DNA of 64,000 nucleotides. It comes from a virus. The number at the start of each line of letters is the position of its first letter. The first letter of the stretch is position 1. Below, piece after piece: positions 2,351 through 44,643 of this stretch. The position numbers and the translations under genes were made by a program. The stretch covers positions 32,001-96,000 of IMG/VR virus record IMGVR_UViG_3300019888_000002; one strand, given 5' to 3'. The notes below the pieces were generated by a model that saw only the letters and a list, made by a program, of their open reading frames with translations, was not told the DNA's origin and did not search any database.

Positions 2351-4189
2351 TCACAGGAGATAGTGCGTGCCCTCGAGGCTCAACTCTTTGGGGTCCAACG
2401 GAGCCCCGTCGGCCGATGCCTCATTGATCAGTGCCTCCTGCTCGGAGAAGGTGTAATTGCGACCGGCCACCTTGGGCACTCCACCCATCAGATAGGCCAA
2501 CGGGTCCCCCTGATCGCTCACAGCGGCTTCACGAGTATCCACAGCGGAGAACATGGCCAGCGCGGGATCGTCGGCCTCCACCGGGGCCGAGCTGGACCCC
2601 GTGGACCCGGCCAGCGGGTCCATGTTGCCGAACGCCTGAATCGAATCCAGGGATGCCTCCCGGAAATCGTGATCCTCGGAGGCCGCCATCACCGGATTGA
2701 TCCCCGGCACGTTCACCCGTTCCATGCGAGAGCGTTCGTGCCGCTCGACATAGGACTCGCTGGTGTCGATGTCCGGTGCGTCGACCGCGCCGGAACCCTG
2801 GAAAGGCTCATGATTCTCGGGTTCGTAGAGCCCGCCGCAGGCTTGCACCTCGATCGCCGCCGTCAGGTTGTCGGCGTTGTACCCGCGTGCGCGTAAGACC
2901 TGCACGATCCGGCTCATCTCCCGATTGCGCTCCTCGTTGTGCTGCGGCCGGTTGTTCTCGGCACCGAGCGCACGGAGACGTTCCAGCAGCTGCTGATCCT
3001 CGGGATCGATCACCCGTTGGATGTCGATGATGGCGGCCATGATGCCGATGGAGCTGCTCACTCCGATCAAACCGTGCTCGGACCGAAGGTCTTCGTGATG
3101 CAGGTGGCCCCCGGCGTCCGGGATGTCGTTGTCATCGAAATGCAGCGAACCCGGCTCGTGTGTGAGGTACCCCGGTGCGGGCTCGTAGCCCCTCCGTCCG
3201 GCCGTGTTCTGCATGTCGGCATTCGGGTCCTGGTCCTGCGGTTGACCCATGTCGCCCTCGGCATCGGCGGCGGGAACGGGCTCACTGCGGCCCTCACCGT
3301 CGGCCTCGACACTGCGAGAGGCATACCAGGCCGGGGTCTTGTCCTTCTTCTGATGCTGACTCCGCAGCTCGAGATAGGCAGCATAGGCATGGCTGCACAA
3401 CCGGCCGACGAAGGTGAACTTACGTTTGAACGCCCACTTGCCCCATTCACAGGTGCAGTCCCACTCCGAGATCGAACTGTCCCCCGCCATCGCGCCGGAA
3501 CGGACCACGATCGTCTCGTACACCCCGTGGTCCCCCATGACATAGGCGTAGATCGACTGCGGAGTGGCCCCGATGACCTCCACCTGACCGTCGTTACGGA
3601 TACGCACGCCCTTGGCGCGTACGTCCTTCCACGCTGCGGTGCGGATATCGGCATCGGCGGCGAGAAGATTCAGGTAATTGGCGGTGTGCTCATCGATCTC
3701 GTGACCGTCACCGGCATGATGAGCGAACTGGAGGTCCTGAGCGAGCCGGACCGGGTTGTGACGCAACCGGGAGATGATCGAGTCCTTGTCGAACTCCTCC
3801 GGCACGGCAGCGAACCGGGCATCCCGGCTGCCGTAGGTCTCCTCGGTCGACGCCTCGGCGAACAGGTGCCCGGCCGGTGCGGGCTCGGCGGCGTACGGGC
3901 GTTCCTCGAAGGTCAACGAGTCGGACGGGCGCAACCGCTTGTCCGGGTCGATTCTCATGTCTCCGAGCGGCTGCTGATAGACCTCCGAAGGCCATTGCGG
4001 GCGAGGATCGTAGGGCAACGTGGTGGTGTTGCTCCGGTTCACCTCCGGAGGGTTCTCATCGAACTGGAGCAGGGCGGCATCGATCCAGATCTCGAAGCCC
4101 TCACCTGCGACCTTGTGGGTCGTACGACCGTGGACGGTCTGTGTTTCCACGACCTCCCCGAGGCCGTAGGAAGTGTGCACCTTAGACAT
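2351..4189 (-). CDS. Head-module protein with SWIM-type zinc finger (612 aa)
   Basis: WDCTCEWGKWAFKRKFTFVGRLCSHAYA fits the SWIM CxC...CxH pattern; SD CAGGAGG; lies between portal and protease. Confidence 0.65.
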   Translation of the reverse strand: MSKVHTSYGLGEVVETQTVHGRTTHKVAGEGFEIWIDAALLQFDENPPEVNRSNTTTLPYDPRPQWPSEVYQQPLGDMRIDPDKRLRPSDSLTFEERPYAAEPAPAGHLFAEASTEETYGSRDARFAAVPEEFDKDSIISRLRHNPVRLAQDLQFAHHAGDGHEIDEHTANYLNLLAADADIRTAAWKDVRAKGVRIRNDGQVEVIGATPQSIYAYVMGDHGVYETIVVRSGAMAGDSSISEWDCTCEWGKWAFKRKFTFVGRLCSHAYAAYLELRSQHQKKDKTPAWYASRSVEADGEGRSEPVPAADAEGDMGQPQDQDPNADMQNTAGRRGYEPAPGYLTHEPGSLHFDDNDIPDAGGHLHHEDLRSEHGLIGVSSSIGIMAAIIDIQRVIDPEDQQLLERLRALGAENNRPQHNEERNREMSRIVQVLRARGYNADNLTAAIEVQACGGLYEPENHEPFQGSGAVDAPDIDTSESYVERHERSRMERVNVPGINPVMAASEDHDFREASLDSIQAFGNMDPLAGSTGSSSAPVEADDPALAMFSAVDTREAAVSDQGDPLAYLMGGVPKVAGRNYTFSEQEALINEASADGAPLDPKELSLEGTHYLL

Positions 4190-4727
4190 GCGAAGCCTCC
4201 TGCTCGACTATCTCTTCCTGTCCGAAAGATGCAGGGAATACACCATCCGGGATCAATCGAAGGACCGATTGAGCTGTCGTCGGCACGCATTCGATCAAAG
4301 TGAGCCACAACCCCTGGTTGATGACTCGCATCGGTTCGGAGTGTTCGACCGACCCCACCAGATGCGTCACGATGTGCCGGGGCGACATGGTGACGATGAA
4401 GGACACCATCACGAAATCCGGAAGAACCCGCTCGGCTTCGGCCCAGCTGGCCCCTCGGGAGCGTAGCGACTCGAAGAGGGCCACGGCCTGGGCTGCCAAC
4501 TCGTTGTGACGGTCCTGCTGGCTCGAGGGGACATGAAAAGCGATGTCCCGGGTGTGGGTGTCCACTCTGCCGACGGTCTTGGAGACCAATTGGTCCCCGA
4601 ACTCCGATTGAACGAAGCGTGGGGCCACGATCTGCCAGGTGATCGAGCCATGAGCCAACCCGAGATCGTCACCGACGGAGTCTCGGACGATGTTGACCTC
4701 GATCTCTTCGGTGAAAACCGGTCTCAT
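4182..4727 (-). CDS. Hypothetical protein, head module
   Basis: ORF coupled to the portal stop by an ATGA overlap; coding-like composition. Confidence 0.6.
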   Translation of the reverse strand: MRPVFTEEIEVNIVRDSVGDDLGLAHGSITWQIVAPRFVQSEFGDQLVSKTVGRVDTHTRDIAFHVPSSQQDRHNELAAQAVALFESLRSRGASWAEAERVLPDFVMVSFIVTMSPRHIVTHLVGSVEHSEPMRVINQGLWLTLIECVPTTAQSVLRLIPDGVFPASFGQEEIVEQEASHV

Positions 4728-7204
4728 ACCCATAACGGCTGGATTCCGTGGACCAATTCGTACTGCTCGAGCATTCCTTCGAGATCTTCGTGCTGACTGA
4801 CGATGCTGGCGGCCGTGCGCCGACGCACTTCGTCGGAGGCGAAATGATATTCCTCGATATCGGGCCAGTCGGTGTGGAAATCCAGTCCGTTTTGATTGAG
4901 CGTGGAGTAGAAGTGCTCACTGGAGACCAGATCGGCGACCGTGGGCATCTTGTAGGCCATCCGGTCGATGGCTTCCCGGACACTCTGGTCGTCGGCGCGC
5001 AACACGGCTCCCACCGAGGACGGAGCCTGACCCAATCGATTGACCACCACCGGTACCGGCTCTTCTCCGTCGACCGAGGCGGCCTTGGGCATGGTCTTGC
5101 GCTGCTCGTCGGATTCGGCCGGACGAGACCGGTTGCGCGGGCTCGGTGGTTTGGTCTTGGTGTCTTCCGTACCGCTCGGCGGGTTCGCGTCCTTGGCGTC
5201 GGAGATCGAGGTCTCGATCCCGTTGTCCATGTCGTTGGGTCCGGCGCTGTCGGCACCCTCGGCACCGGCTGCTCCAGCCGTTCCTGGCATCTCACCGGTT
5301 TCCTCGAAGTGATCCTTGGTCGACTCGGCCATTTCGGCGTCGGTCTTGGCCTTGTCGTTGTTGATTCCGGCCTGTTCGGCCATCTTCTCTTCACGCTCGA
5401 GCTGCGACTGAGCTGCCAAGAACTTGGCCAGCTCGGGCGGCATCGGCAGCCCCTGAGCCTTGATCAGCTCGGCGGCCTTCTTCATGGCCTGAGCCTGAGC
5501 GACCAGCTTGTCCACCATCTCCTCGGACTGCTTCTCCAGCTCCGACTCGAACTCGATCGGCACGTTGACGGCCAGACTGCGATCCGAGATCGGGACCCCG
5601 GCGTTCTTGAGCATCTGAAGGAACGACCGCTCCTGTGCTTCGTCGCGCAGATTGAGTGACTGGAACTTGATGTCGGGAATCAACAGCTTGGGCACCTTGC
5701 GGATGGTCTCCTCGCCGGTCCGGGGATCGGTCTCCACGATCTCCCGATAGACCGGCTCTCGATTGCCGCCCCGAGTGTCGTAGTCGTAATGGCCTTGGGC
5801 CTCGGCGATGACCAGGCACCGCTTCCGAACGTGGCGTTTCACGGCGTTCTGGTAGCTCAGCATCATCTGCGTGACGAACTCGCGGTTGAGCGCGGTCGAC
5901 GCATAGTTCTGGGTGCCGGTGCCACCGGAGATCAGAGCCTCGCCGATGCCCCATGCCTGCATCAGCTTCTTGTCGATCCGGCTGTAATCGGTGTCGAATC
6001 GGGGAACGGCTTCCCGGCCGAACACACTCTTGATGTCGAGCCCCATGTGATGCACCATCAGGCGGAAATCGGCGGCCAGGGCGCTTTGAAGGTTCTCCCG
6101 GGTTTCGTCCAGTTCGGCAGGGGTGGGAATCCACGGTCCGGCGTCGTCACCGAGGTTGGCGATGCCGAGAGTGGCCAGGATCAGCGGGCTGTAGAGCCGA
6201 TCCGCCACGGCGTCCTGTGCGGCGTTGAGCGATTCTTCGAGCATCAGGGTCTTGAAGGAACGCATCATGTGAGGTGTCCCCCGGGTGTCCCACGGCTGCA
6301 CCTTGTTGACGATCCGAGAGATCAGTGCGTCGGAGATGTCGATACCGTCGTCCTGGGCGGCGGCGGCGATGAACTCGGGGTACTCGTTGACCAGGGTCTG
6401 GTAGTCGTTCTGTCGCTGACGGCGTTCGCTGGCCGAAAGGTTGGCGTCGTCCATACTTCCCGAACCGGAGCGCAGGCCCTCGACCATTTCCTTGACCATG
6501 AGCTGCACTCGTTCGACCGGCTGATCGGTGTCGCTGTTCCCGAACATCGGTTTGGAGACGTGCAGGTGATCGGGGTCCATGATCTCTTCGGCTGTCCAGA
6601 TGCCGAGGGTCTCGGAGAAATGGCCCAGTGCGTTGATCTCACCGGAGATGAAGTATTCCCGACCCATGTCCTGAAGGAAATTCCCGTAATCCAGGGTGTC
6701 GAAGAACATTTCGTTGTAGAAACGCTCGATCTCCGGATCTTTGTTGGTCAGTTCAAACCCGATCACCGGGAACTTGGAGTAGATGTCGATCAGCAACGGA
6801 ATCAGGTCGTGGGTGCAATAGAACAACCGAGCCCAACGCCTGATCTCGATCAGTTCCTTGGGGTTACGGGTGTCGAACGGGATGCCCTTGTCGATCAGCG
6901 AGGACATCGGTTTGCGGACCTTGGGCAACGCCAGTTGCACGTTGGCCCCGGTGCGGGACATCGCCGCCACTCGTTGACGAGCGGCCCCCATGGACGCGGT
7001 GAGCGTCCGATTGTCCATCGACTCCCGGACCCGCGCTGTCTCCGACATGGCCGAGCCGTCGGAATAGGGCAAGGTGTATCCGGCCTGCCGAAGCTGCTGC
7101 ATGTGGGTGTTGAGGTTGGTGGTCACAAGCCGGGGGTTGGTGGTGGCTCCACCCACACCTGCCGTCCGAGAACCACGGAGGTCTCTCACCGTGAAATCGG
7201 CCAT
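4724..7204 (-). CDS. Portal protein (826 aa)
   Basis: IRRWARLFYCTHDLIPLLIDIYSKFP, NKVQPWDTRGTPHMMRSFKTLMLEESLNAAQDAVADRLYSPLILATLG resemble large-actinophage portals; position between terminase and protease. Confidence 0.8.
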   Translation of the reverse strand: MADFTVRDLRGSRTAGVGGATTNPRLVTTNLNTHMQQLRQAGYTLPYSDGSAMSETARVRESMDNRTLTASMGAARQRVAAMSRTGANVQLALPKVRKPMSSLIDKGIPFDTRNPKELIEIRRWARLFYCTHDLIPLLIDIYSKFPVIGFELTNKDPEIERFYNEMFFDTLDYGNFLQDMGREYFISGEINALGHFSETLGIWTAEEIMDPDHLHVSKPMFGNSDTDQPVERVQLMVKEMVEGLRSGSGSMDDANLSASERRQRQNDYQTLVNEYPEFIAAAAQDDGIDISDALISRIVNKVQPWDTRGTPHMMRSFKTLMLEESLNAAQDAVADRLYSPLILATLGIANLGDDAGPWIPTPAELDETRENLQSALAADFRLMVHHMGLDIKSVFGREAVPRFDTDYSRIDKKLMQAWGIGEALISGGTGTQNYASTALNREFVTQMMLSYQNAVKRHVRKRCLVIAEAQGHYDYDTRGGNREPVYREIVETDPRTGEETIRKVPKLLIPDIKFQSLNLRDEAQERSFLQMLKNAGVPISDRSLAVNVPIEFESELEKQSEEMVDKLVAQAQAMKKAAELIKAQGLPMPPELAKFLAAQSQLEREEKMAEQAGINNDKAKTDAEMAESTKDHFEETGEMPGTAGAAGAEGADSAGPNDMDNGIETSISDAKDANPPSGTEDTKTKPPSPRNRSRPAESDEQRKTMPKAASVDGEEPVPVVVNRLGQAPSSVGAVLRADDQSVREAIDRMAYKMPTVADLVSSEHFYSTLNQNGLDFHTDWPDIEEYHFASDEVRRRTAASIVSQHEDLEGMLEQYELVHGIQPLWV

Positions 7205-13528: not shown

Positions 13529-13600
13529 GGGGAGTTCCTTTCTCGGGTCTTGCTCTTTGCTTGTACTAATACTGTACCTCAAGATTCCTCGGTCCGCAAC
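13529..13600 (-). promoter_or_regulatory. Sigma-A-like promoter with GTAC-N7-GTAC
   Basis: TTGCGG-17-TACAGT; gtac at 13563 and 13574. Confidence 0.75.
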
Positions 13601-13623
13601 CCCCGAATCGCGACGATCGAGAA

Positions 13624-13643
13624 GGTGGGGCCGAAGCCCCACC
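13624..13643 (-). terminator. Terminator hairpin GGTGGGGC-TTCG-GCCCCACC
   Basis: 8-bp GC stem with cUUCGg loop just after the stop at 13650. Confidence 0.6.
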
Positions 13644-13649
13644 CCGAGA

Positions 13650-14006
13650 TCAGCAGAGCGTGGAGATCACGCTCGAGTCGAGCAGGCCCAGGCCCTTGGC
13701 GAAGACGCCCTCCCGCTTGGCCATGGCGATGAGATCGCCCTTGAGCTGACCCTTGCGGAACTGGTGAACCGGAAGGTCGACCGTGACCTTCGTGCCGTCC
13801 TTCAGCTCGCCGTAGCAGTAGCTGAGGTCCCAATACGGGAAGCCGGGATCGGTCAGGAGGCGAAGCCGGACGACGCGGGCAAGACGCGGATCGTTCAGGG
13901 AAACCCGCTGGCTGCGGTCGATGTTCTCGCGGAAGTCGTGCCAGTGCTCGGTCATCCCGTTGGTCTCGTAGACACCGTAGGTCTGGAGTGCGTCCTGGTT
14001 GATCAT
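13650..14006 (-). CDS. Early hypothetical protein (118 aa)
   Basis: RVVRLRLLTDPGFPYWDLSYCYGEL; strong SD and own promoter. Confidence 0.75.
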   Translation of the reverse strand: MINQDALQTYGVYETNGMTEHWHDFRENIDRSQRVSLNDPRLARVVRLRLLTDPGFPYWDLSYCYGELKDGTKVTVDLPVHQFRKGQLKGDLIAMAKREGVFAKGLGLLDSSVISTLC

Positions 14007-14080
14007 GGGAGGTTCCTTTCGTGGGTCCTGCTCTGTGCCTGTACTAGAACCATACCATAACTGTACTAGGCACGCAACAC
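14007..14080 (-). promoter_or_regulatory. Sigma-A-like promoter with three phased GTAC half-sites
   Basis: TTGCGT-17-TATGGT; gtac 14041, atac 14052, gtac 14063. Confidence 0.7.
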
Positions 14081-14092
14081 CCCCGGGTCACC

Positions 14093-14818
14093 TCAGCTGT
14101 CGATCAACGGGAAGACATATTCCTCTGACCCCCAGCGTAAAACGATTCGGTCGAAGGTGATCTCTCCCGGGGGTGCCAGCTCCTCGATCGAACCGTCGTA
14201 CTTTGCTGTGAGATGGGGCAGCCATGGCTCGTGCTGCTCAGGAAGAGGCCGGGGGCCGAAGACGGAGACCGTGTGGTTGACGATCTCTTTGAGTGGAGTG
14301 AGCAGAGTGGAGTCGCTGACCAGATAGACAGCACAGGGTTCTTCGGAGGTGGGGTTGAACATGGCATGAGCGAAAAGCTTGGCCGTGATCGTCGGATACA
14401 TCTCCAGCTCGGCATCGAGCCCGGTGAGCAGCTCTCTACACGAGAGCGCGGTGACGTCGGAACCGAAGAAATAGAGCGTGACGTGAAGATCTTCGACCGG
14501 TTCCCCGCCCTCGACGGCATAGTAACGGGCATCCTCGATCCGGGGTATGAGCGCCAACATCCCACCGGTCTTCTTACTCTGCTCGGCGTCGGCAAGATGT
14601 AGCTGTGGTGTGGTCATGAACCCAGTGTCTCTCAGCATCGGAGGATTGGGCTCGAGATCGACATCCTGGGGATAGCCCCCGTGCTCCACGACCCACCCGA
14701 TGATCAGCTCCGCGCGGCGCTCGAAATCGATGCGTTCGTGCTCGGTCAAAGGCTGTTGCGGACAACAGGCTTCACATTGATGAAGGAAAATGGCGAGACG
14801 TCTTTGTAAGTCCGACAT
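14093..14818 (-). CDS. 2H phosphoesterase (2'-5' RNA ligase-like)
   Basis: Two HxT motifs, DLHVTLYF and WLPHLTAKY; preceded by GGMLALIP. Confidence 0.8.
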   Translation of the reverse strand: MSDLQRRLAIFLHQCEACCPQQPLTEHERIDFERRAELIIGWVVEHGGYPQDVDLEPNPPMLRDTGFMTTPQLHLADAEQSKKTGGMLALIPRIEDARYYAVEGGEPVEDLHVTLYFFGSDVTALSCRELLTGLDAELEMYPTITAKLFAHAMFNPTSEEPCAVYLVSDSTLLTPLKEIVNHTVSVFGPRPLPEQHEPWLPHLTAKYDGSIEELAPPGEITFDRIVLRWGSEEYVFPLIDS

Positions 14819-17403: not shown

Positions 17404-18051
17404 TCAGGAGACAGGTGTCGGCGAGGAATCCCCCGGTGAAGTGCTTTCCACCGGGCTCGGCGCTGGTGACAGCGTTGCCACTGTCACCGAGGTCTGCTCG
17501 GGAGTGGTGACGACGGTGGTTGTGGCTTGAGTGGTCTGAACAGTGCTCTGCTCGGGTGGGGACGTTGTCTCTGTGGTGGTGACGACCGGAGGGGGCGACG
17601 ATCTCGTCACCGTGCTCGAGGTGGGCACCGAGACCGAACTACCAGTCTGTTGCGGAGGAAGGGGAGGTGGGGGAGACAGCGAACTGCTGCCCCCACCGAG
17701 CACGACACACGCCGGTCCGGAGATCACCTCGGCGAGGCATCCGTTGTAGACCTTCACGTCTTCGGCCGTGGACAGCCTCGAGCGAGGATCATCCGGAGGG
17801 AAAGCGTTCGGGTTCAGGGCTACCGGGTTCCCGTCGGGGTTGAGGACATCGGGACGACGCGCTGCCGACGGGGGAACTGTGGTTGTGGTGGGGGAGGGCC
17901 GGACCTTGGTGCCATCCGAGGAATCGTTCGCCGGAGGCGAGTAGCTGAAGACGAAGACGATCAGCATGACGAAGAGTAACGAGAAACTCCCCACCACCCA
18001 GATCACCAACCATGGGCTGACAGGGGGTGTCGACTCCTTCTCCGGGATCAC
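17404..18051 (-). CDS. Membrane-anchored Pro/Thr/Ser-rich protein
   Basis: N-terminal TM (WLVIWVVGSFSLLFVMLIVFVF), CxxxxxxxxxC pair, long P/T/S-rich tail. Confidence 0.7.
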   Translation of the reverse strand: MIPEKESTPPVSPWLVIWVVGSFSLLFVMLIVFVFSYSPPANDSSDGTKVRPSPTTTTVPPSAARRPDVLNPDGNPVALNPNAFPPDDPRSRLSTAEDVKVYNGCLAEVISGPACVVLGGGSSSLSPPPPLPPQQTGSSVSVPTSSTVTRSSPPPVVTTTETTSPPEQSTVQTTQATTTVVTTPEQTSVTVATLSPAPSPVESTSPGDSSPTPVS

Positions 18052-18061
18052 AAACCTCGCC

Positions 18062-18667
18062 TCAGTCGCAGTGGATATCCGGGATCGGGTGGTCCTTCTG
18101 GTCCTGCGTCAACGCTGTCCGCTGTTGGCCCGTCGCCAGAGTATCGGTGTGGTATCGGTCGAACAGCGCTCTTATCTCGGCCTGAGCGTCCTGTCTTCCC
18201 AGGTAGGGGATGACTCCGAAGACGAGAGCCGAGATGTTCTGGGCGTCCTGAGCGTTGACCATGTTGATCCTGGCGTCGATCGACTGTTGTGCGATAAGCG
18301 CGACCTTGACCTCCTGATTGCACGCGGCCTGCGCTTGCACGCTGTTGCTTTGCCGGTTGAGGGCGAAGCCGCTGATCACGATCGAGACCGCCGAGATGAT
18401 CAGAATGATCACCAGCATTGCCGTCTGGCCGTTCTCCCACCTCCGAGTTTTCGCCTGCAATTCGCCGGTCAGTATCTCCGCCGCGCGAGTCTCCTTCTCG
18501 GAGGCCCGGGTTTCCTTCTCCGAGGCCCGAGTCTGTGTCTCGGAGGCCCGAGTCTCCTGCTCCGAGGCCCGAGTCTGCGCCTCCGATGCGCGGGCTGTCT
18601 GGTCCGACATCTTCTGCCGCAACCTGTCCTCTTCGTTGAACACAAATCCGCCTTCTTCATTCGTCAT
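18062..18667 (-). CDS. Lysis-cassette membrane protein with cytoplasmic heptad repeats
   Basis: (RASExxT)n coiled coil, one TM, then AQAACNQE...HPIPDIHCD. Confidence 0.7.
   Translation of the reverse strand: MTNEEGGFVFNEEDRLRQKMSDQTARASEAQTRASEQETRASETQTRASEKETRASEKETRAAEILTGELQAKTRRWENGQTAMLVIILIISAVSIVISGFALNRQSNSVQAQAACNQEVKVALIAQQSIDARINMVNAQDAQNISALVFGVIPYLGRQDAQAEIRALFDRYHTDTLATGQQRTALTQDQKDHPIPDIHCD
18482..18597. repeat. 21-bp imperfect tandem repeat (about 5.5 copies) encoding RASExxT heptads
   Basis: Recurring gaggcccgagt units every 21 nt. Confidence 0.85.
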
Positions 18668-18682
18668 TTACGGAGCACCCTG

Positions 18683-19216
18683 CTATTGAGGTGGCTGAGC
18701 GTAGTTCGGCGTGATCTTGAGTCGGGCCACGTACGAAATCGCCGTCTGGATGACCGTCTTCGCGACCAGGATCGCCAACACGCTCCACGCGGCCTTGTTG
18801 AAGAAATCGAAGCCCGTCCCCGACGTCAGCACGAGGCCGAACACCGACAGCAACGCGAACCCGATGTCGATGCCGAGGCCCTGCACGAACGTGCGGAAGC
18901 TCCGGTTCCTGGCCGACGCGATGGTCAGCTCCTTGCCGGTGACCGTGGTCCCGGTGATGTTCGGGACGACGCCGGGAAGCCCCTGTCCGGTCAACTCACC
19001 CATGCCGACCTGCTGCACGTAGCCAGCCACCTGAGCCTGAAGAGCCGGTTGCTGCGCCTTGATCTCGTCGCGTGCCGCCGTGGCGGCCTCCGCGCGGACG
19101 GATTCCCAGAATGAGACCTTGCCCTCGCCGGGTATGTGCTGCCCCGGTGTGTCGGGATTGGCCACACCGATCAGCTCGGGAGGCGGAGAAGGTGTCGAAT
19201 CCTTCGGCGTGCTCAT
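18683..19216 (-). CDS. Holin
   Basis: RNRSFRTFVQGLGIDIGFALL...AWSVLAILVAKTVIQTAISY, a typical actinophage 2-TM holin; directly downstream of the lysins. Confidence 0.7.
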   Translation of the reverse strand: MSTPKDSTPSPPPELIGVANPDTPGQHIPGEGKVSFWESVRAEAATAARDEIKAQQPALQAQVAGYVQQVGMGELTGQGLPGVVPNITGTTVTGKELTIASARNRSFRTFVQGLGIDIGFALLSVFGLVLTSGTGFDFFNKAAWSVLAILVAKTVIQTAISYVARLKITPNYAQPPQ

Positions 19217-20553
19217 TTGGTCATCTCCTTCACTACGGCATCGTGTTCGGCCACCGTGAGCGGAGAACCTTTCTCGGCGGCCTTGCGCAGCAACGCGAGC
19301 ACGATGTTCAACTCACCGCGTGCGGACAGAATGTGGCCGAAGGCGTCGTCGTCCTGTGCCGGGGTGACGGGACGCTTGATCGTGCCCTCGCCCCACACCC
19401 TCAGCCGCTTGGTGGTCTTCCACAGCACCTTCGCGAATGCGCCACGCAGGCTGAGCTTGTCGCCCTGCTCGTTCTCCTGCAACGGCAGACCCGCGCTCGC
19501 CGACAACTCCGAGGCGATGTTCTGGAGAGATTCCTCTGCGGTCATGGTGGTGATTCCTTTCGATGGGGTTGCGTTCTGAGCTGGGGGTGCCACGACGCGA
19601 GGTAACGAACCCCGCACCTGCATGACGTGATAGGGATCGGCGTTGTCTCCCCACTGACTGATCGAATAATGCAGGTTGTCCATCGTGGAGAGCGGGTGAA
19701 AGAAGCCCCCGTAGAGCCGGGGGAACTGCACTCCGGTGGCGAGATCGTGCCGTGGTGCGGTGTAGGCGTTCCCGGTGGGTCCGTCGAGCACTCTGCCGGT
19801 GACCGCGTAGCGAGTGGGCTCGAATACCGAGATGACCCAGTTGCCCTCGATCTTGCGCCAGTGCGGCTCACCGAAAATTCCGGTGATGATGGGTGACGGT
19901 GGCCGTCCCCATTTCCAGTCCCGAGAATCCTTGTCGTAGCCCCAGCCCTCATAGGTGCTCAGGTCACTGAGCGACCCCACCGGAGCCCGCTGAATGAAGA
20001 GGCCATCGGCCAGGTGCCGTCCGTTCGACGTGGACAGGCAGTAGGCGTAGTTGCCGTCCACGATCCACGACTGCATCTGGAAGATGTCGCTGTGCACGAG
20101 GTTGTTGTTCCACAGCTTGTGATCGTCCCAGGTCTCGCCCCGGTCGGCCGAGAAGGCCAGGCCAGCGTAGTTCGTCTCCCAGGTGCCGTGATCCCAGTTG
20201 TTGACGCTCATGTAGCTCATGCAGAAGATGCCGTCGACCACGAACACGTCGGTCGGAATCTTGGTGACCTCGCCCTCGTACCACTTCTGATGCGCGTTCG
20301 GGAGTAGCTCCCTCCCTCCCGCCAGAGCCCGGTCGAAGGTGATACCGGAGTCGAGGTCCGTCGCGGTGGACACCAGACCCACCGGAGAACGCCACCATCC
20401 CGGCCTGCCGACGTTGTCCTCGAACGAGTCGCCGAACAGGGCACCGAACTCGCCATTTCCCATGTCCCACCAGATACCAAGATCGGTACCGCCGAGACCC
20501 AAGGTCTTCGGCCTGACGTCACTGCCCACGAGGGTCTTGATCAGGTCGCTCAT
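19213..20553 (-). CDS. DUF4185 / GH183 endo-D-arabinanase-like protein with C-terminal ~110-aa domain
   Basis: GGTDLGIWWDMGNG..LFGDSF...WRSP...IPTDV...YMSVNNW...W.TNYAGLAFSAD.GETW is the DUF4185 signature. True start is ATG 20553 (ATGA overlap with LysA stop), not 21582. Confidence 0.85.
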   Translation of the reverse strand: MSDLIKTLVGSDVRPKTLGLGGTDLGIWWDMGNGEFGALFGDSFEDNVGRPGWWRSPVGLVSTATDLDSGITFDRALAGGRELLPNAHQKWYEGEVTKIPTDVFVVDGIFCMSYMSVNNWDHGTWETNYAGLAFSADRGETWDDHKLWNNNLVHSDIFQMQSWIVDGNYAYCLSTSNGRHLADGLFIQRAPVGSLSDLSTYEGWGYDKDSRDWKWGRPPSPIITGIFGEPHWRKIEGNWVISVFEPTRYAVTGRVLDGPTGNAYTAPRHDLATGVQFPRLYGGFFHPLSTMDNLHYSISQWGDNADPYHVMQVRGSLPRVVAPPAQNATPSKGITTMTAEESLQNIASELSASAGLPLQENEQGDKLSLRGAFAKVLWKTTKRLRVWGEGTIKRPVTPAQDDDAFGHILSARGELNIVLALLRKAAEKGSPLTVAEHDAVVKEMTK

Positions 20554-22124
20554 GGCAGGAACTGCCTCTCGATCAACTCGACCAATTTCTCCTCGATCGA
20601 AGTCACTGCCGGAGCCGGTGAAGAGGTCGGCGTAGCTCCTGGCGCGGACTGAGCAGGCGTTTCTCCTGGCGTCGGCGGTGCCTGAGCTGGCGCTGCGATA
20701 GATACCGGCGCGGGAGCCAGACTCGGCGCTGCATCGTTGACACCCCACGCCGACAGCCACACATGCAGCGGCATCTTGGAAACATTCATGTCGGTAGGAC
20801 CGAATGGAGCGGTGTCTTCGGAGTCGGTGTACTGATGACCGAATATCGGGTCCGGGCTGTCGGGCTCGTTGTCGGCCCCGTTGTAGGCAGGCACGACGAG
20901 CTTGATGCCGTTGGGCCTTGTTTGCCACAACTCCGCGTTGGAGTTGAAGTTGAGGTATCCCGCCGTCGCCTGTGGGTTCTTGAAATAGTCGTTGATCTTC
21001 GAGATCAGCTCGTTGACCTCCGCGCTCTGGTCGCCGGAGATGCCCCACTTGGCCCCGCCGTCTTCGACGTCGACCATCGCGCACAATTCGGCGAACACCC
21101 CACCTGTTTGCGTGATGACCCCGGTGAACGTGCCGAGGTTGTCGACTCCTGGAACGAAGAAGTGATAGCCGATGACCTTCTGGAGCTTCCCCCTCGATAC
21201 GGCATCGCGTGCCTTCTGCATCTGCTCGACAGCGTGCTCGTCCACGGTATCGCCGATGGAGAGCCGGAACGCGATGACCGGATAGGGGTAGGAATCGTCC
21301 AGGAAGGCGTCCTGATACTGGCTGTAGTCGCCCCACTTGACCACGACCGGCTCGGGGTCCGAGATAACGGAGAGCGGGGCCTTGAGTCGCCAACCGTCCT
21401 TGATGACCGCGTCCCATTCCCACGATCCGACGTGACCGTGCGGTGCCCAGCCCTTGTCGAGCTGAAGCAGAGTCGCGGCCTTCGAGGTGGCACCGTCGTT
21501 CCATTTCTTGGTGACCGGCAGACCGAGAGCCTCCTGCCAGCGGCCCAAGCCATCCTTGGCCGCCTGCGAATCTCCACGCCACTCACCCGAGACGGACTCG
21601 TCGGGACCATCCTGCGGCCCGTAGTAATAACCGAGCGGTAGCGGAAACTCGTTGGGGTCCGCAGCGGCCCAGATGTTGAGGTAGCCACCCTGTAGCTTCG
21701 CGGCGAACGGAGCGATCTGTTCCGCGTTGCCCTGAATCTGGAAGTGCATTTCGTCGGGACGATCCCAATCCCGGCCCCAGAACACCGTGCCCTCGAACAG
21801 TGCGAGACCGACACGAATCTTGTCGATCATCCACTGCGGCATGGTGTATTCCTGCCAGGGCCACTGACTGGAGTTGATGTCCATCGCGGTGCCCGAGAGG
21901 TGGTTGGAATTCCAGACGGTATTCGTCCGACTCCAACCCCATTCGTCGCGCTCACCTTGATCTATCGGTGCGACGTTGCGGTGATACCAGGCTGCGAACC
22001 CCTTGAGAATGGTGGTGACATCACCCTGAAGAATCTCGCAGACAGCATTGGTGCCGGGAATCAGTCCCCGATCCAACACATCGGAATCGCATTGATCCCA
22101 ACCGTTCTCGGTCACAATAGTCAC
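20550..22124 (-). CDS. lysA: Endolysin (Lysin A): M15 peptidase, PG-binding-like linker, GH25 muramidase
   Basis: ENGW...SNHLSGTAMDIN...WG.DW.RPDEMHFQI (M15); GDYSQYQ...GYHFF...MVDVEDGG (GH25). Confidence 0.9.
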   Translation of the reverse strand: MTIVTENGWDQCDSDVLDRGLIPGTNAVCEILQGDVTTILKGFAAWYHRNVAPIDQGERDEWGWSRTNTVWNSNHLSGTAMDINSSQWPWQEYTMPQWMIDKIRVGLALFEGTVFWGRDWDRPDEMHFQIQGNAEQIAPFAAKLQGGYLNIWAAADPNEFPLPLGYYYGPQDGPDESVSGEWRGDSQAAKDGLGRWQEALGLPVTKKWNDGATSKAATLLQLDKGWAPHGHVGSWEWDAVIKDGWRLKAPLSVISDPEPVVVKWGDYSQYQDAFLDDSYPYPVIAFRLSIGDTVDEHAVEQMQKARDAVSRGKLQKVIGYHFFVPGVDNLGTFTGVITQTGGVFAELCAMVDVEDGGAKWGISGDQSAEVNELISKINDYFKNPQATAGYLNFNSNAELWQTRPNGIKLVVPAYNGADNEPDSPDPIFGHQYTDSEDTAPFGPTDMNVSKMPLHVWLSAWGVNDAAPSLAPAPVSIAAPAQAPPTPGETPAQSAPGATPTSSPAPAVTSIEEKLVELIERQFLP

Positions 22125-22215: not shown

Positions 22216-22962
22216 TCAACCGATCTTCACGAGATACACCACTGCCGTTACCAGGTACCCGGTAGCGCCGAAGGTCACCGACGTCCCCGAATTGTTGAAC
22301 GGCTCCACGATGTTCAACGAAATATTCGGGGTACTGGCCCCCGAATACGAAGTCGGCGGATTACCGGACTGAGATGTGATGTCCGGGGCCGGATGAAGCG
22401 AGACCGCCTGATATCCGTTGTAGGCGAAACCCCAACCGAACCCGATCAAGGTGCCGCTGAGCCTGGCTTCGAGACAGGGCCTGGTCGAGCCCGCCCCGCT
22501 GATGATCGCCGAGGCGAAGATGAGCGGTCGCCAGGAGAATCCGGGAGCCGAGAGAGTCCAGTTCGCGATGGTGAAGGAACCACCCTGTCCGGCCGTACCC
22601 GTCGTGCGGGAGGTCGTACCGAACGGACCCTGAATGTTCCCCGCCCCGAACGCGGGAATCTGCGCAACGGGAATCTTGGAACCGGAATCGAGACTGGCGA
22701 CCCCGTTGGCGGCCGCCTTCTGCGCATTGGGAATCAGCAATCCGTCTTGTTGCTGGTAATAAGCGGGGGTGGCAGCATTGTTGTCTGCGGCGTCCACATA
22801 ATCCGTACGCGCGAGCCCGGTGACCCCGGTAGCCACCTTGTTGTCGACATAGGAACGCTGGGTCCCTCCGGCAAAAGTATTGTCGATAGCAAGGCGTCTG
22901 GTGATGTCGGTAGTCGCAGTGGGAGCCTTACCTGTGTACTTTAACGAAGACGTTTCACTCAC
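22216..22962 (-). CDS. Minor tail protein
   Basis: SLKYTGK...YVD..D repeats; paralogous with the next two ORFs. Confidence 0.7.
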   Translation of the reverse strand: MSETSSLKYTGKAPTATTDITRRLAIDNTFAGGTQRSYVDNKVATGVTGLARTDYVDAADNNAATPAYYQQQDGLLIPNAQKAAANGVASLDSGSKIPVAQIPAFGAGNIQGPFGTTSRTTGTAGQGGSFTIANWTLSAPGFSWRPLIFASAIISGAGSTRPCLEARLSGTLIGFGWGFAYNGYQAVSLHPAPDITSQSGNPPTSYSGASTPNISLNIVEPFNNSGTSVTFGATGYLVTAVVYLVKIG

Positions 22963-22968
22963 CTCCCT

Positions 22969-23712
22969 TTACAGCGACGGCAGTAGTAGCGCATAGAAAA
23001 TGAAACCTGTGCTCTGGAAATAAAAGGTTCCACTCCCGGAATACAGCGACAGCCACAATTCCAGTGTCCTTCCGCCACTCAGTCCATAAGCCGCCTGTGC
23101 AGCCGCTGCGTACGGCATGACCTGGTAGCTCTGAATATTGGTGTTGTCCCCGGTAACACCTACGCCAGTCCACCCGTTGTTCGAGGGGTCGAGAATGACA
23201 CCCTGGCCCCAATTGCCTGCCGCCGAGGCGAACCCTCGCAACGTGGCGAACGAGAACATCACATACGGCCAACCGGGATCGGGAACCGTCAGGCTGGCTG
23301 CCCGATAGGTCTTCGTCGTCGTACTGGACACCCCTTGCGTACCGCTGAGATATTGCGTTCCGGTGGCGGCAACAACTATGGAGCGGTCGGGTATGGACGT
23401 TGGCACCTGCGCGGCCGGGACCAGATTGTCCGCGCCGAGGGACGCTATGCCGCTCGCGGCTCCGCGCGCCGTCGCCAGGAGATATCCGTTGTCCGCCGTG
23501 TCGACTGCGGTCTTCTTGGCCTTGGTGTTGTCCTGGGTGTCGACATAGGTCTTGAGCGCGAGAACGCCGGTTTGCGCTGCCACAGCCGAATTGACGTACG
23601 CCTGATTGACACCGGTCGTGGCGAATCGATCGTCTACGGTCTGTTTACTCGAGATCGAAAAGTCGGAATCGGCTGCTTTCCCGACATATTTAAGTGACGA
23701 CGTTTCACTCAC
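22969..23712 (-). CDS. Minor tail protein
   Basis: MSETSSLKYVGK N-terminus nearly identical to the neighbour; GIASLG...VP..Q.P fibre motif. Confidence 0.7.
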   Translation of the reverse strand: MSETSSLKYVGKAADSDFSISSKQTVDDRFATTGVNQAYVNSAVAAQTGVLALKTYVDTQDNTKAKKTAVDTADNGYLLATARGAASGIASLGADNLVPAAQVPTSIPDRSIVVAATGTQYLSGTQGVSSTTTKTYRAASLTVPDPGWPYVMFSFATLRGFASAAGNWGQGVILDPSNNGWTGVGVTGDNTNIQSYQVMPYAAAAQAAYGLSGGRTLELWLSLYSGSGTFYFQSTGFIFYALLLPSL

Positions 23713-23715
23713 CCC

Positions 23716-24426
23716 TCACGAAGGTATGGCCATCACGTAGAAATACGGCTTGTAGGTCGACACTGTCACCTGACCATTGCTCCCGCCTTGATACAGCGTC
23801 ACATAGAGCGTCGTCGCGCCGGTCTTGATCGTCTGTCCGTTCACGTTGTACGGCTCCACGTTCACACCTGTCCAGTACGTCGCATCGGCTGGCCCCCACC
23901 CCTGCGCTATCAGCTGTCCACCGGAACTGCCGACCCGAACCTCGATGACGGGATAGGTGGAGATATCGGCGGAGTGCACCTCATGACTGGCAAAACACAG
24001 CAACCTGTACGAATAGCCAGGGTCGCTGATCGCACAGGTGTAGAGGACTGTCGTTCCGCTGTAAACATCGACGTTCGAGCCGGGGTAGGACGAAGGACTC
24101 CAGAACAGTCGGTTGTTGCGTTGCGTGACCGTGACGTTGAGCTTGCTGGCCAACACCTTGCCGGTCGCGCCAAGCCCAGGGACCCCGTTCGCCACATCCT
24201 TCTGCGCGAGCTTGAGCCGGAGGTTGTCCTGACTGTCGACATAACTCGTCGTCGCGTTGAGCGCGTCCTGACTGTCCACATAGGTCTTCGCGGCATACGG
24301 GGCGAGCTGGCTGTTGACCGAGGTATCGACCTGCGCCTGGGTCAGAGCCGTAGCCTGGACGGAATCCACATAGGATTTCCTGGCGATCGTCTTGGCGACA
24401 TCGACAGACTTGCCGACATATCTCAA
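23716..24426 (-). CDS. Minor tail protein
   Basis: RYVGK...KSYVD...YVDSQD repeats; GVPGLG motif. Confidence 0.7.
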   Translation of the reverse strand: MRYVGKSVDVAKTIARKSYVDSVQATALTQAQVDTSVNSQLAPYAAKTYVDSQDALNATTSYVDSQDNLRLKLAQKDVANGVPGLGATGKVLASKLNVTVTQRNNRLFWSPSSYPGSNVDVYSGTTVLYTCAISDPGYSYRLLCFASHEVHSADISTYPVIEVRVGSSGGQLIAQGWGPADATYWTGVNVEPYNVNGQTIKTGATTLYVTLYQGGSNGQVTVSTYKPYFYVMAIPS

Positions 24427-43845: not shown

Positions 43846-44643
43846 TCATGCGGGGCTCCCATACCGGGCATTGAGCAGCTCGGCCCCATATTCGTTCCAG
43901 GTGAGCGAGGACCCCGGGAAATGATGACCCGGGTCCATGTAGGCACCGTGCTCCGTCGGTGGCGTCTTGGTGTAGTTGTAGATGTCGACCACCGCTTGGC
44001 TGTACCGCAGCCAGAACGCCGGATTCCAGAACTGATAGAGAGCCTGCTTGTTGCGTTGCACCCTGATCTGCGCGCCGAGATTGCCGATCTCCCCGCCCTC
44101 GATCAACGAGAACGGCGAAATAGCGTCGGAAATACGTCGAACAGGGCTCAACGGGTCGGCATCGGTGATCATGTCGGCGGGGTTGGCCAGCTCGTAGACC
44201 GGAATATCAGCCGGACCGAGCACCCGCTCACCGTGTAACCCGAAATTGGTCTTGTTGCAGACATCACCGATGCTTTCTCCGGCGCGGCGACCGGGATTGG
44301 CGATGTTGAAAGCGAAACGGACATCCATGTCACCCCGAACCTGCGGACTGACCAGCTCGGTGAGTATCTGATCGACCACCAACGCACCCAACGAGTACCC
44401 CAGGAAGGCGATCGGCGTCCCGGCGTACTTCTGGGCCAGCGCCAGACCGTTGCTGGCACCGATTCGCACGGCCGTGTTGAGCGAAACACCCGAAGGCTGG
44501 ATTCCCCGACCGACTGGGCCGAGCGTTGCCGGGAAATCCACGTCCTCGACCGCGAAACTCGAGTTCAGACGGTCGGTGAAGTCCTTGAGCATCCCCTCGC
44601 CCAATACCTCGCCGGTACCTCTGAAGGCAAGAACCATAATCAT
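43846..44643 (-). CDS. lysB: Lysin B-like cutinase/esterase (alpha/beta hydrolase)
   Basis: AFRGTGE, DFPA, FLGYSLGA nucleophile elbow, IANP.R, D and C-terminal H (TEHGAY). Confidence 0.75.
   Translation of the reverse strand: MIMVLAFRGTGEVLGEGMLKDFTDRLNSSFAVEDVDFPATLGPVGRGIQPSGVSLNTAVRIGASNGLALAQKYAGTPIAFLGYSLGALVVDQILTELVSPQVRGDMDVRFAFNIANPGRRAGESIGDVCNKTNFGLHGERVLGPADIPVYELANPADMITDADPLSPVRRISDAISPFSLIEGGEIGNLGAQIRVQRNKQALYQFWNPAFWLRYSQAVVDIYNYTKTPPTEHGAYMDPGHHFPGSSLTWNEYGAELLNARYGSPA

Follow-up and report, generated by a model that had tools for sequence, protein, structure and literature searches.

Why should a phage encode, directly beside its endolysin, an enzyme predicted to cut D-arabinan? 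The question is raised by a gene for a protein of 446 amino acids (aa) at positions 19213-20553, minus strand, of the window analysed here, the 64,000-nucleotide stretch comprising bases 32001-96000 of the 131,157-bp IMG/VR virus record IMGVR_UViG_3300019888_000002. The record has direct terminal repeats and represents an uncultivated 131 kb phage that infects mycolic-acid bacteria. Arabinan is the covalent bridge that joins peptidoglycan-galactan to the mycolate outer membrane. The original prediction, made from the sequence alone, saw in this gene a D-arabinanase serving as a third lysis enzyme. We consider it likely that its product, hereafter the arabinanase, is a leaderless and, by prediction, catalytically competent GH183 retaining endo-alpha-D-arabinofuranase that aids host lysis, together with LysA and a holin-like protein, by cutting arabinan.

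The family to which the protein belongs is clear. Residues 16-314 align to positions 8-309 of the 309-position profile PF13810 (DUF4185) with an E value of 1.9e-67; the score is 228 bits where the cut-off is 39.5, far beyond chance, and a search of the phage's own genome for the same profile gave 229 bits. The profile comparison proposed with the original prediction thus bears out the DUF4185 domain claimed there, with nearly the whole profile covered. A phmmer search of PDB sequences gave an E value of 6e-30 for the enzyme EndoMA1, both as 8HHV and as the D51N mutant 8IC1; AraH2 (8AN0) and EatA (9MZ5) came next. With 128 homologues as input, AlphaFold2 gave a model whose block means of the predicted local distance difference test (pLDDT) are 86-98 over residues 1-320, and Foldseek, given this model, placed 8IC1/8HHV at ranks 1-2 (E 3e-28, root-mean-square deviation 2.7 A) and AraH2 8AN0 at rank 3. 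The modelled fold of this catalytic part (residues 1-320, 19594-20553) is a five-bladed beta-propeller like those of the solved GH183 structures.

In EndoMA1, D33 (the nucleophile), D51 (the acid/base) and E243 are all essential, their mutation abolishing activity, and the substrate is contacted by R198, W138 and L292/Y293 (Shimokawa et al., PMC10509167). A check of the catalytic Asp and Glu residues, also proposed at the outset, found all three acids in the arabinanase: D24 (in the motif TDLG, 20482-20484) aligns to the nucleophile D33, D42 (FGD, 20428-20430) to the acid/base D51 and E229 (GEP, 19867-19869) to the third essential acid E243. The contact residues have their counterparts in R179, W120 and L280/Y281, respectively. 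The 8 nearest homologues all keep D24, D42, E229, R179, W120 and Y281, and D42, E229, R179 and Y281 are conserved at 90% or more across the 128 family members. By its sequence, its predicted fold and its catalytic residues, the arabinanase belongs to GH183, and endo-D-arabinanase activity is predicted. One could imagine instead a catalytically dead module that binds arabinan and tethers the lysis proteins to the wall. Nothing specific suggests this, except that the Myrna-type LysA (gp243 of phage Myrna) is without a C-terminal wall-binding domain (Payne and Hatfull 2012), and with all three essential acids and the substrate-contact residues conserved we regard the idea as hardly credible.

The limits of the gene are equally well defined. 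Its open reading frame (ORF) contains no internal stop. Its start codon shares a 4-nucleotide ATGA with the TGA stop of the LysA ORF (20550-22124), and its own TGA does likewise with the ATG of a 177-aa ORF (18683-19216), so the overlaps described earlier with LysA upstream and with the gene in the holin slot downstream are present at both ends. The frame is open for 343 codons 5' of the ATG. A longer gene, a 789-aa ORF at 19213-21582 on the minus strand, was considered and rejected as a GC-rich open-frame artefact overlapping LysA in another frame, because the N-termini of homologues begin at the 20553 ATG. We likewise rejected the possibility that the split between LysA and the GH183 gene is a frameshift artefact: Myrna is equally split, and DUF4185 starts, according to the alignment with EndoMA1, at about residue 5 of its own ATG-initiated ORF.

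The arabinanase has no hydrophobic N-terminal segment or signal peptide, as no 19-residue Kyte-Doolittle window reaches 1.6. In this it is unlike EndoMA1 of Microbacterium arabinogalactanolyticum (8HHV/8IC1) and AraH2/Rv3707c of M. tuberculosis (8AN0), with which it otherwise shares the five-bladed propeller, the Asp/Asp pair with the essential Glu, and the Arg/Trp/Tyr contacts; these are cellular enzymes secreted by Sec signals or lipoboxes, and many cellular homologues start with Sec/TAT-like leaders. EndoMA1 moreover carries a carbohydrate-binding module domain, whereas the phage protein has a helical module in its place. A looser likeness is offered by EatA (9MZ5), a GH183 toxin that mycobacteria secrete through ESX-4, in which the GH183 domain is turned on the arabinan of another cell from the periplasmic side; the work on EatA showed that arabinan cleavage harms mycobacteria. 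The similarity of EatA to the arabinanase is weak (E 0.002), and EatA differs in having an N-terminal helical targeting domain for the type VII secretion system, Tap partners and the immunity protein EatI; an immunity gene is not evident in the phage.

The place of the gene in the genome suggests what such an enzyme would be for. On the minus strand the order is a virion structural protein of 1164 aa, then three minor tail genes, LysA, the GH183 gene, a protein with two transmembrane (TM) segments, a single-TM protein with TRASE-type repeats, a single-TM protein with a Pro/Thr/Ser-rich tail, and the large terminase. The arabinanase is therefore encoded inside the lysis cassette, co-oriented with the endolysin and holin-like genes, and a scan of the cassette interior for promoters and terminators found no signal above the shuffled expectation. 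PHROGs assigns the protein to the 'endolysin' family phrog_28089 and to a family without assigned function; neither is a tail family. By tblastn, the DUF4185 domain was found in 36 phage records, from Gordonia, Rhodococcus and Mycobacterium phages.

Comparison with these phages ties the domain to the endolysin. In Myrna (cluster C2) the position is conserved, the order being minor tails gp241-242, endolysin gp243, DUF4185 protein gp244, membrane protein gp245 and terminase-like gp246. Compared with their counterparts in the window, the Myrna LysA is 54% identical, the DUF4185 protein 27%, the membrane protein 43% and the terminase 47%. Like the arabinanase gene, the Myrna gene for gp244 is separate, with a start overlapping LysA, and its product consists of DUF4185, a Pro-rich linker and the same C-terminal helical module. 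Rhodococcus phage Finch has the whole synteny in common with the window, from the virion structural protein through three minor tails (gp224-226) to the lysin and holin, and its gp227 is a 947-aa endolysin of which residues ~557-885 are DUF4185. In Gordonia phage GMA6, Orf45 ('PhageGH4185') is a 1087-aa endolysin with Rv2525c-like, Amidase_2, M23 and DUF4185 domains. Both genes lie in the lysis cassette and are followed directly by a holin-type gene. They differ from the window in that DUF4185, ~26-30% identical to the arabinanase, forms the C-terminal part of a multi-domain LysA; in the window the domain has a gene to itself, complete with a C-terminal module. The fusions of DUF4185 to LysA in Finch and GMA6 link the domain to endolysin function, and they are the strongest argument for a lysis role that comparison of sequences can provide.

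This arrangement is a known one. Al-Jourani et al. 2023 (PMC10115798, main text and Suppl. Fig. S9) described DUF4185 genes, either separate or fused to LysA, that lie within the lysis cassettes of cluster C phages, DQ phages and Finch, and found the DUF4185 domain of GMA6 to be an endo-D-arabinanase on mycobacterial arabinogalactan (AG), which is the only phage precedent for the activity. The interpretation as an accessory lysis enzyme is thus well supported, but it is already published and the arrangement is known for related phages. The original prediction had guessed that DUF4185 might have been noticed before in actinophage lysis regions; the guess was right, and the novelty given to the gene was overrated.

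The tail genes nearby allow a different role to be considered, that of an entry enzyme carried on the tail or baseplate of the virion, docked there by the helical module and drilling through AG or lipoarabinomannan (LAM) at infection. A virion structural protein and the three minor tail genes lie just upstream, the C-terminal module is without an assigned function, and the nearest relative of the catalytic domain with a known context (49% identity; locus L010, a JGI contig) directly follows minor tail genes and precedes an endolysin-like gene. L010 is a single locus, obtained in a metagenome scan with alignment A3; a scan with alignment A4 found none, and a search of viral contigs for related loci with P0001, alignment A3 or P0134 found nothing. 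Against a virion role, LysA separates the tail genes from the arabinanase and the holin-like gene comes next, Finch and GMA6 have the domain joined to peptidoglycan-hydrolase domains, and no tail-type domain was detected in a protein that PHROGs places outside the tail families. We therefore think it unlikely that the arabinanase serves entry.

Several observations weigh against a role in lysis all the same. The gene also adjoins tail genes, which leaves room for the virion role just described, and no deletion of a phage DUF4185 gene, or lysis phenotype for one, appears in the literature searched. Among annotated phage homologues, the closest, those of Rhodococcus phages NiceHouse/Trina (41% identity) and Dorin, lie outside the lysis cassette among nucleotide-metabolism genes, the NiceHouse and Dorin copies sitting among ThyX and methyltransferase genes; linkage to the cassette is consequently not universal. 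A leaderless homologue in Nocardia callitridis, 45% identical, has an ABC-transporter neighbour and no phage genes around it, apparently a cellular context, and this locus made us reject the notion that the nearest leaderless clade is exclusively a phage one. Finally, the preference for AG or LAM varies within GH183 (PMC10115798).

With these points taken into account, lysis remains the function we favour. From what was obtained directly, namely the fold, the family, the catalytic residues, the missing export signal, the gene order and the fusion in relatives, we infer the substrate, the dependence on a holin and the contribution to lysis in the following way. LysA, the arabinanase and the two-TM protein would be co-expressed late from one transcript with translational coupling, and the two leaderless enzymes would build up in the cytoplasm until the holin opens the membrane and lets them reach the wall. 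There LysA would cut peptidoglycan, while the arabinanase would cut the D-arabinan that joins the mycolate layer to galactan-peptidoglycan, the arabinan of LAM, or both. Such cutting may uncouple the mycolyl-arabinan layer and loosen the outer envelope, and a distantly encoded LysB-like esterase would remove the mycolates at the mycolyl-arabinan ester. The attack on three layers by LysA, arabinanase and LysB that was originally proposed fits the gene content of the phage, in which LysA, GH183 and LysB-like genes are all present.

Which arabinan matters most is a separate issue. The same enzyme, acting at the same time, could have LAM, a lipoglycan anchored in the membrane, or capsular arabinomannan as its key target in preference to wall AG, and would then help the phage past the mechanical barrier that lipomannan (LM) and LAM set against lysis. 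LM/LAM block corynephage lysis unless the phage protein LysZ is present (PMC13123898), some GH183 enzymes, such as MSMEG_2107, prefer LAM (PMC10115798), and the LysB-like gene already handles the mycolyl-AG link. On the other hand, the GMA6 domain and most of the GH183 enzymes tested are more active on AG than on LAM (PMC10115798), the cassette of our phage also carries a candidate LysZ-like membrane protein, and specificity is not readable from sequence. We hold LAM as the principal target to be a rather doubtful, though conceivable, refinement, and not one that is exclusive of an attack on AG.

The relation of the arabinanase to LysB is one of the points at which this phage departs from the published picture. 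The gene named LysB in the original prediction (43846-44643, minus strand, ~23 kb from the lysis cassette) encodes a 265-aa alpha/beta-hydrolase that matches phrog_102 at E 4e-34 and has the serine motif GYSLG. It finds tblastn matches in 154 phage records, the best of them annotated 'lysin B' in Gordonia phages. The name stands in the form of a LysB-like gene, whose product is a putative mycolyl-arabinogalactan esterase. No PDB sequence homologues were found for this protein or for LysA. A search with phrog_102 also detected LysB-type genes in Finch (117719-118591 of the L007 record), GMA6 (13590-14270 of the L004 record, a match that holds one in-frame TGA), NiceHouse and Dorin, and none in Myrna.

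These data bear on the published view that LysB is missing and the DUF4185 enzyme takes its place, as stated in the legend to Suppl. Fig. S9 of PMC10115798 for cluster C, cluster DQ and Finch. Myrna agrees with that view, being without LysB (Payne and Hatfull 2012) as well as without a phrog_102 match. For the window phage and for Finch, GMA6, NiceHouse and Dorin it fits poorly, since a LysB-like or LysB-type gene accompanies GH183 in each, and lysB has been placed ~24 kb from the DQ lysis cassette (Pollenz et al.). With a LysB-like gene present, the arabinanase would add to LysB and not replace it; replacement appears improbable here. The survey of co-occurrence with lysA and lysB suggested with the original prediction thus favours, as far as gene content can tell, the wording 'third enzyme' over 'replacement', the arabinanase usually being accompanied by a LysB-type gene. 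We observe in addition that the phrog_102 gene of Finch is at odds with the legend of Fig. S9, according to which DQ phages and Finch have no lysin B; GMA6 was also positive.

The catalytic domains of the arabinanase and Myrna gp244 are only 27% identical. In a maximum likelihood tree of 44 DUF4185 sequences, the catalytic domain of the arabinanase falls into a clade of seven with 99% support, together with six leaderless proteins of 321-343 aa. Myrna gp244 and the related proteins P0024 and P0038 group in another clade, with the domains of Finch, GMA6 and Tonitrus. The approximately unbiased test rejects a single group of the arabinanase and the Myrna-type proteins (delta lnL 114, p 8.8e-7), this group having been named after the tree was built and motivated by synteny. 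The catalytic domains (19594-20553, minus strand, in the window; 3992-5281 of the Myrna locus L003) thus belong to different clades, while the flanking proteins show 43-54% identity and both enzymes have the C-terminal module. This combination suggests that catalytic domains were swapped within the family: the propeller would have been replaced by one from another DUF4185 clade with the module kept in place.

The module itself (residues 337-446, 19213-19545) is preceded by a Pro-rich linker (residues 321-336, 19546-19593) and consists of four helices predicted with low confidence. It is common to the arabinanase, Myrna gp244, P0024, P0038 and P0114, and it shows 52-53% identity to free-standing proteins of 108 aa that form a cluster (P0134, P0164 and P0165) and occur on 17 contigs, which measure up to 100 kb. 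Outside this set the module is isolated: there was no Pfam match at E up to 1, no paralogue in its own genome, no tblastn match in 50,697 phage records, and two word-indexed homologue searches returned the query alone. The ESM Atlas gave no usable feature match and structural look-alikes were weak (template modelling score at most 0.53). An AlphaFold2 model from a 7-sequence alignment reached a pLDDT of 59, too poor for a fold search. Our best guess is that the module is an autonomous unit that targets or regulates the arabinanase.

A further possibility is that the module acts as a lysis-system factor in its own right, in targeting, timing or partner-binding, and is made both fused and as a free 12-kDa protein starting at M337. 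The free 108-aa proteins start at a Met homologous to M337, and the ATG of M337 is preceded, at a spacing of 9 nucleotides, by the Shine-Dalgarno-like sequence AAAGGA; among the internal in-frame ATGs of ten long ORFs, a match that good occurs at 3 of 108. The free homologues and the placement of AAAGGA make a second, free product possible, comparable to the second product that Ms6 lysA yields in frame. The reading draws further support from the presence of the module in Myrna-type proteins and from the rejected grouping of the catalytic domains. The evidence for an internal start is suggestive only, and a separate factor of this kind is proposed tentatively.

The remaining genes of the cassette complete the picture. 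LysA (524 aa, 20550-22124) is identified by Peptidase_M15_4 in Pfam, by phrog_26250 'endolysin' at E 3e-172 and by its identity to Myrna gp243. It comprises an N-terminal M15 peptidase, a central wall-binding-like region with the motifs FPLP-GYYYGP, a C-terminal endolysin domain and a Pro/Ala-rich tail, and a hydrophobicity scan found no TM segment or signal peptide. The tail (residues ~465-524, 20550-20730, minus strand), just 5' of the arabinanase start, is a Pro/Ala-rich linker of ~45 residues followed by a short helix (IEEKLVELIERQF). This linker and helix mirror the layout of the arabinanase C-terminus. A region of the LysA FPLP-GYYYGP type also occurs in P0009, a 452-aa protein in a cellular genome record of Williamsia herbipolensis, where it stands at the N-terminus and is fused directly to DUF4185; P0009 may be a prophage lysin remnant. 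Directly 5' of LysA lie the minor tail genes (22216-24426, minus strand; phrog_1446), three tandem paralogues of ~240 aa each, an arrangement kept in Finch (three copies) and Myrna (two).

Downstream of the arabinanase, the original prediction had named a holin. The gene at 18683-19216 (minus strand) does encode a protein with two hydrophobic segments towards its C-terminus (residues 110-136 and 142-164) that corresponds to Myrna gp245 and stands where Finch and GMA6 have a gene annotated 'holin'. The name itself rests on this position, the PHROGs family of the protein being without assigned function, and we call the protein holin-like. Before the terminase there are two single-TM genes that Myrna does not have. 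The first (18062-18667, minus strand) codes for a 201-aa protein with five N-terminal TRASE-type repeats (TRASE/ARASE/TRAAE), a predicted TM segment at residues 78-106 and a C-terminal region; it found no sequence match in the phage collection. Its repeats and single TM segment recall LysZ (PMC13123898), which is defined by architecture only, and the likeness extends to architecture only; a Pro-rich linker is not evident. The second (17404-18051, minus strand), the last gene before the terminase, codes for a 215-aa protein with a predicted N-terminal TM segment and a long, extended Pro/Thr/Ser-rich tail. It is absent from the Myrna cassette, in which gp245 abuts gp246.

The best phage matches are split by host, with Mycobacterium phages for LysA and the terminase, Gordonia phages for the LysB-like protein and Rhodococcus phages for GH183. 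The host is a member of the Mycobacteriales, not necessarily Mycobacterium.

What is new at this locus is a propeller from a clade unlike that of Myrna, free-standing homologues of the module together with an internal ATG, and the coexistence with a LysB-like gene. No new class of lysis protein is involved, as both the concept and the biochemistry behind it date from a 2023 publication. A phage enzyme that cuts arabinan would be a candidate reagent, or an enzybiotic partner of LysA and LysB, against mycolata, and the arabinanase could serve as a tool to gauge the resistance that each layer of the envelope offers to lysis. To the family the present case adds a divergent, leaderless GH183 member with an uncharacterised helical module, and it strengthens the case that several large actinophages have both GH183 and LysB-type genes, with GH183 not simply a replacement.

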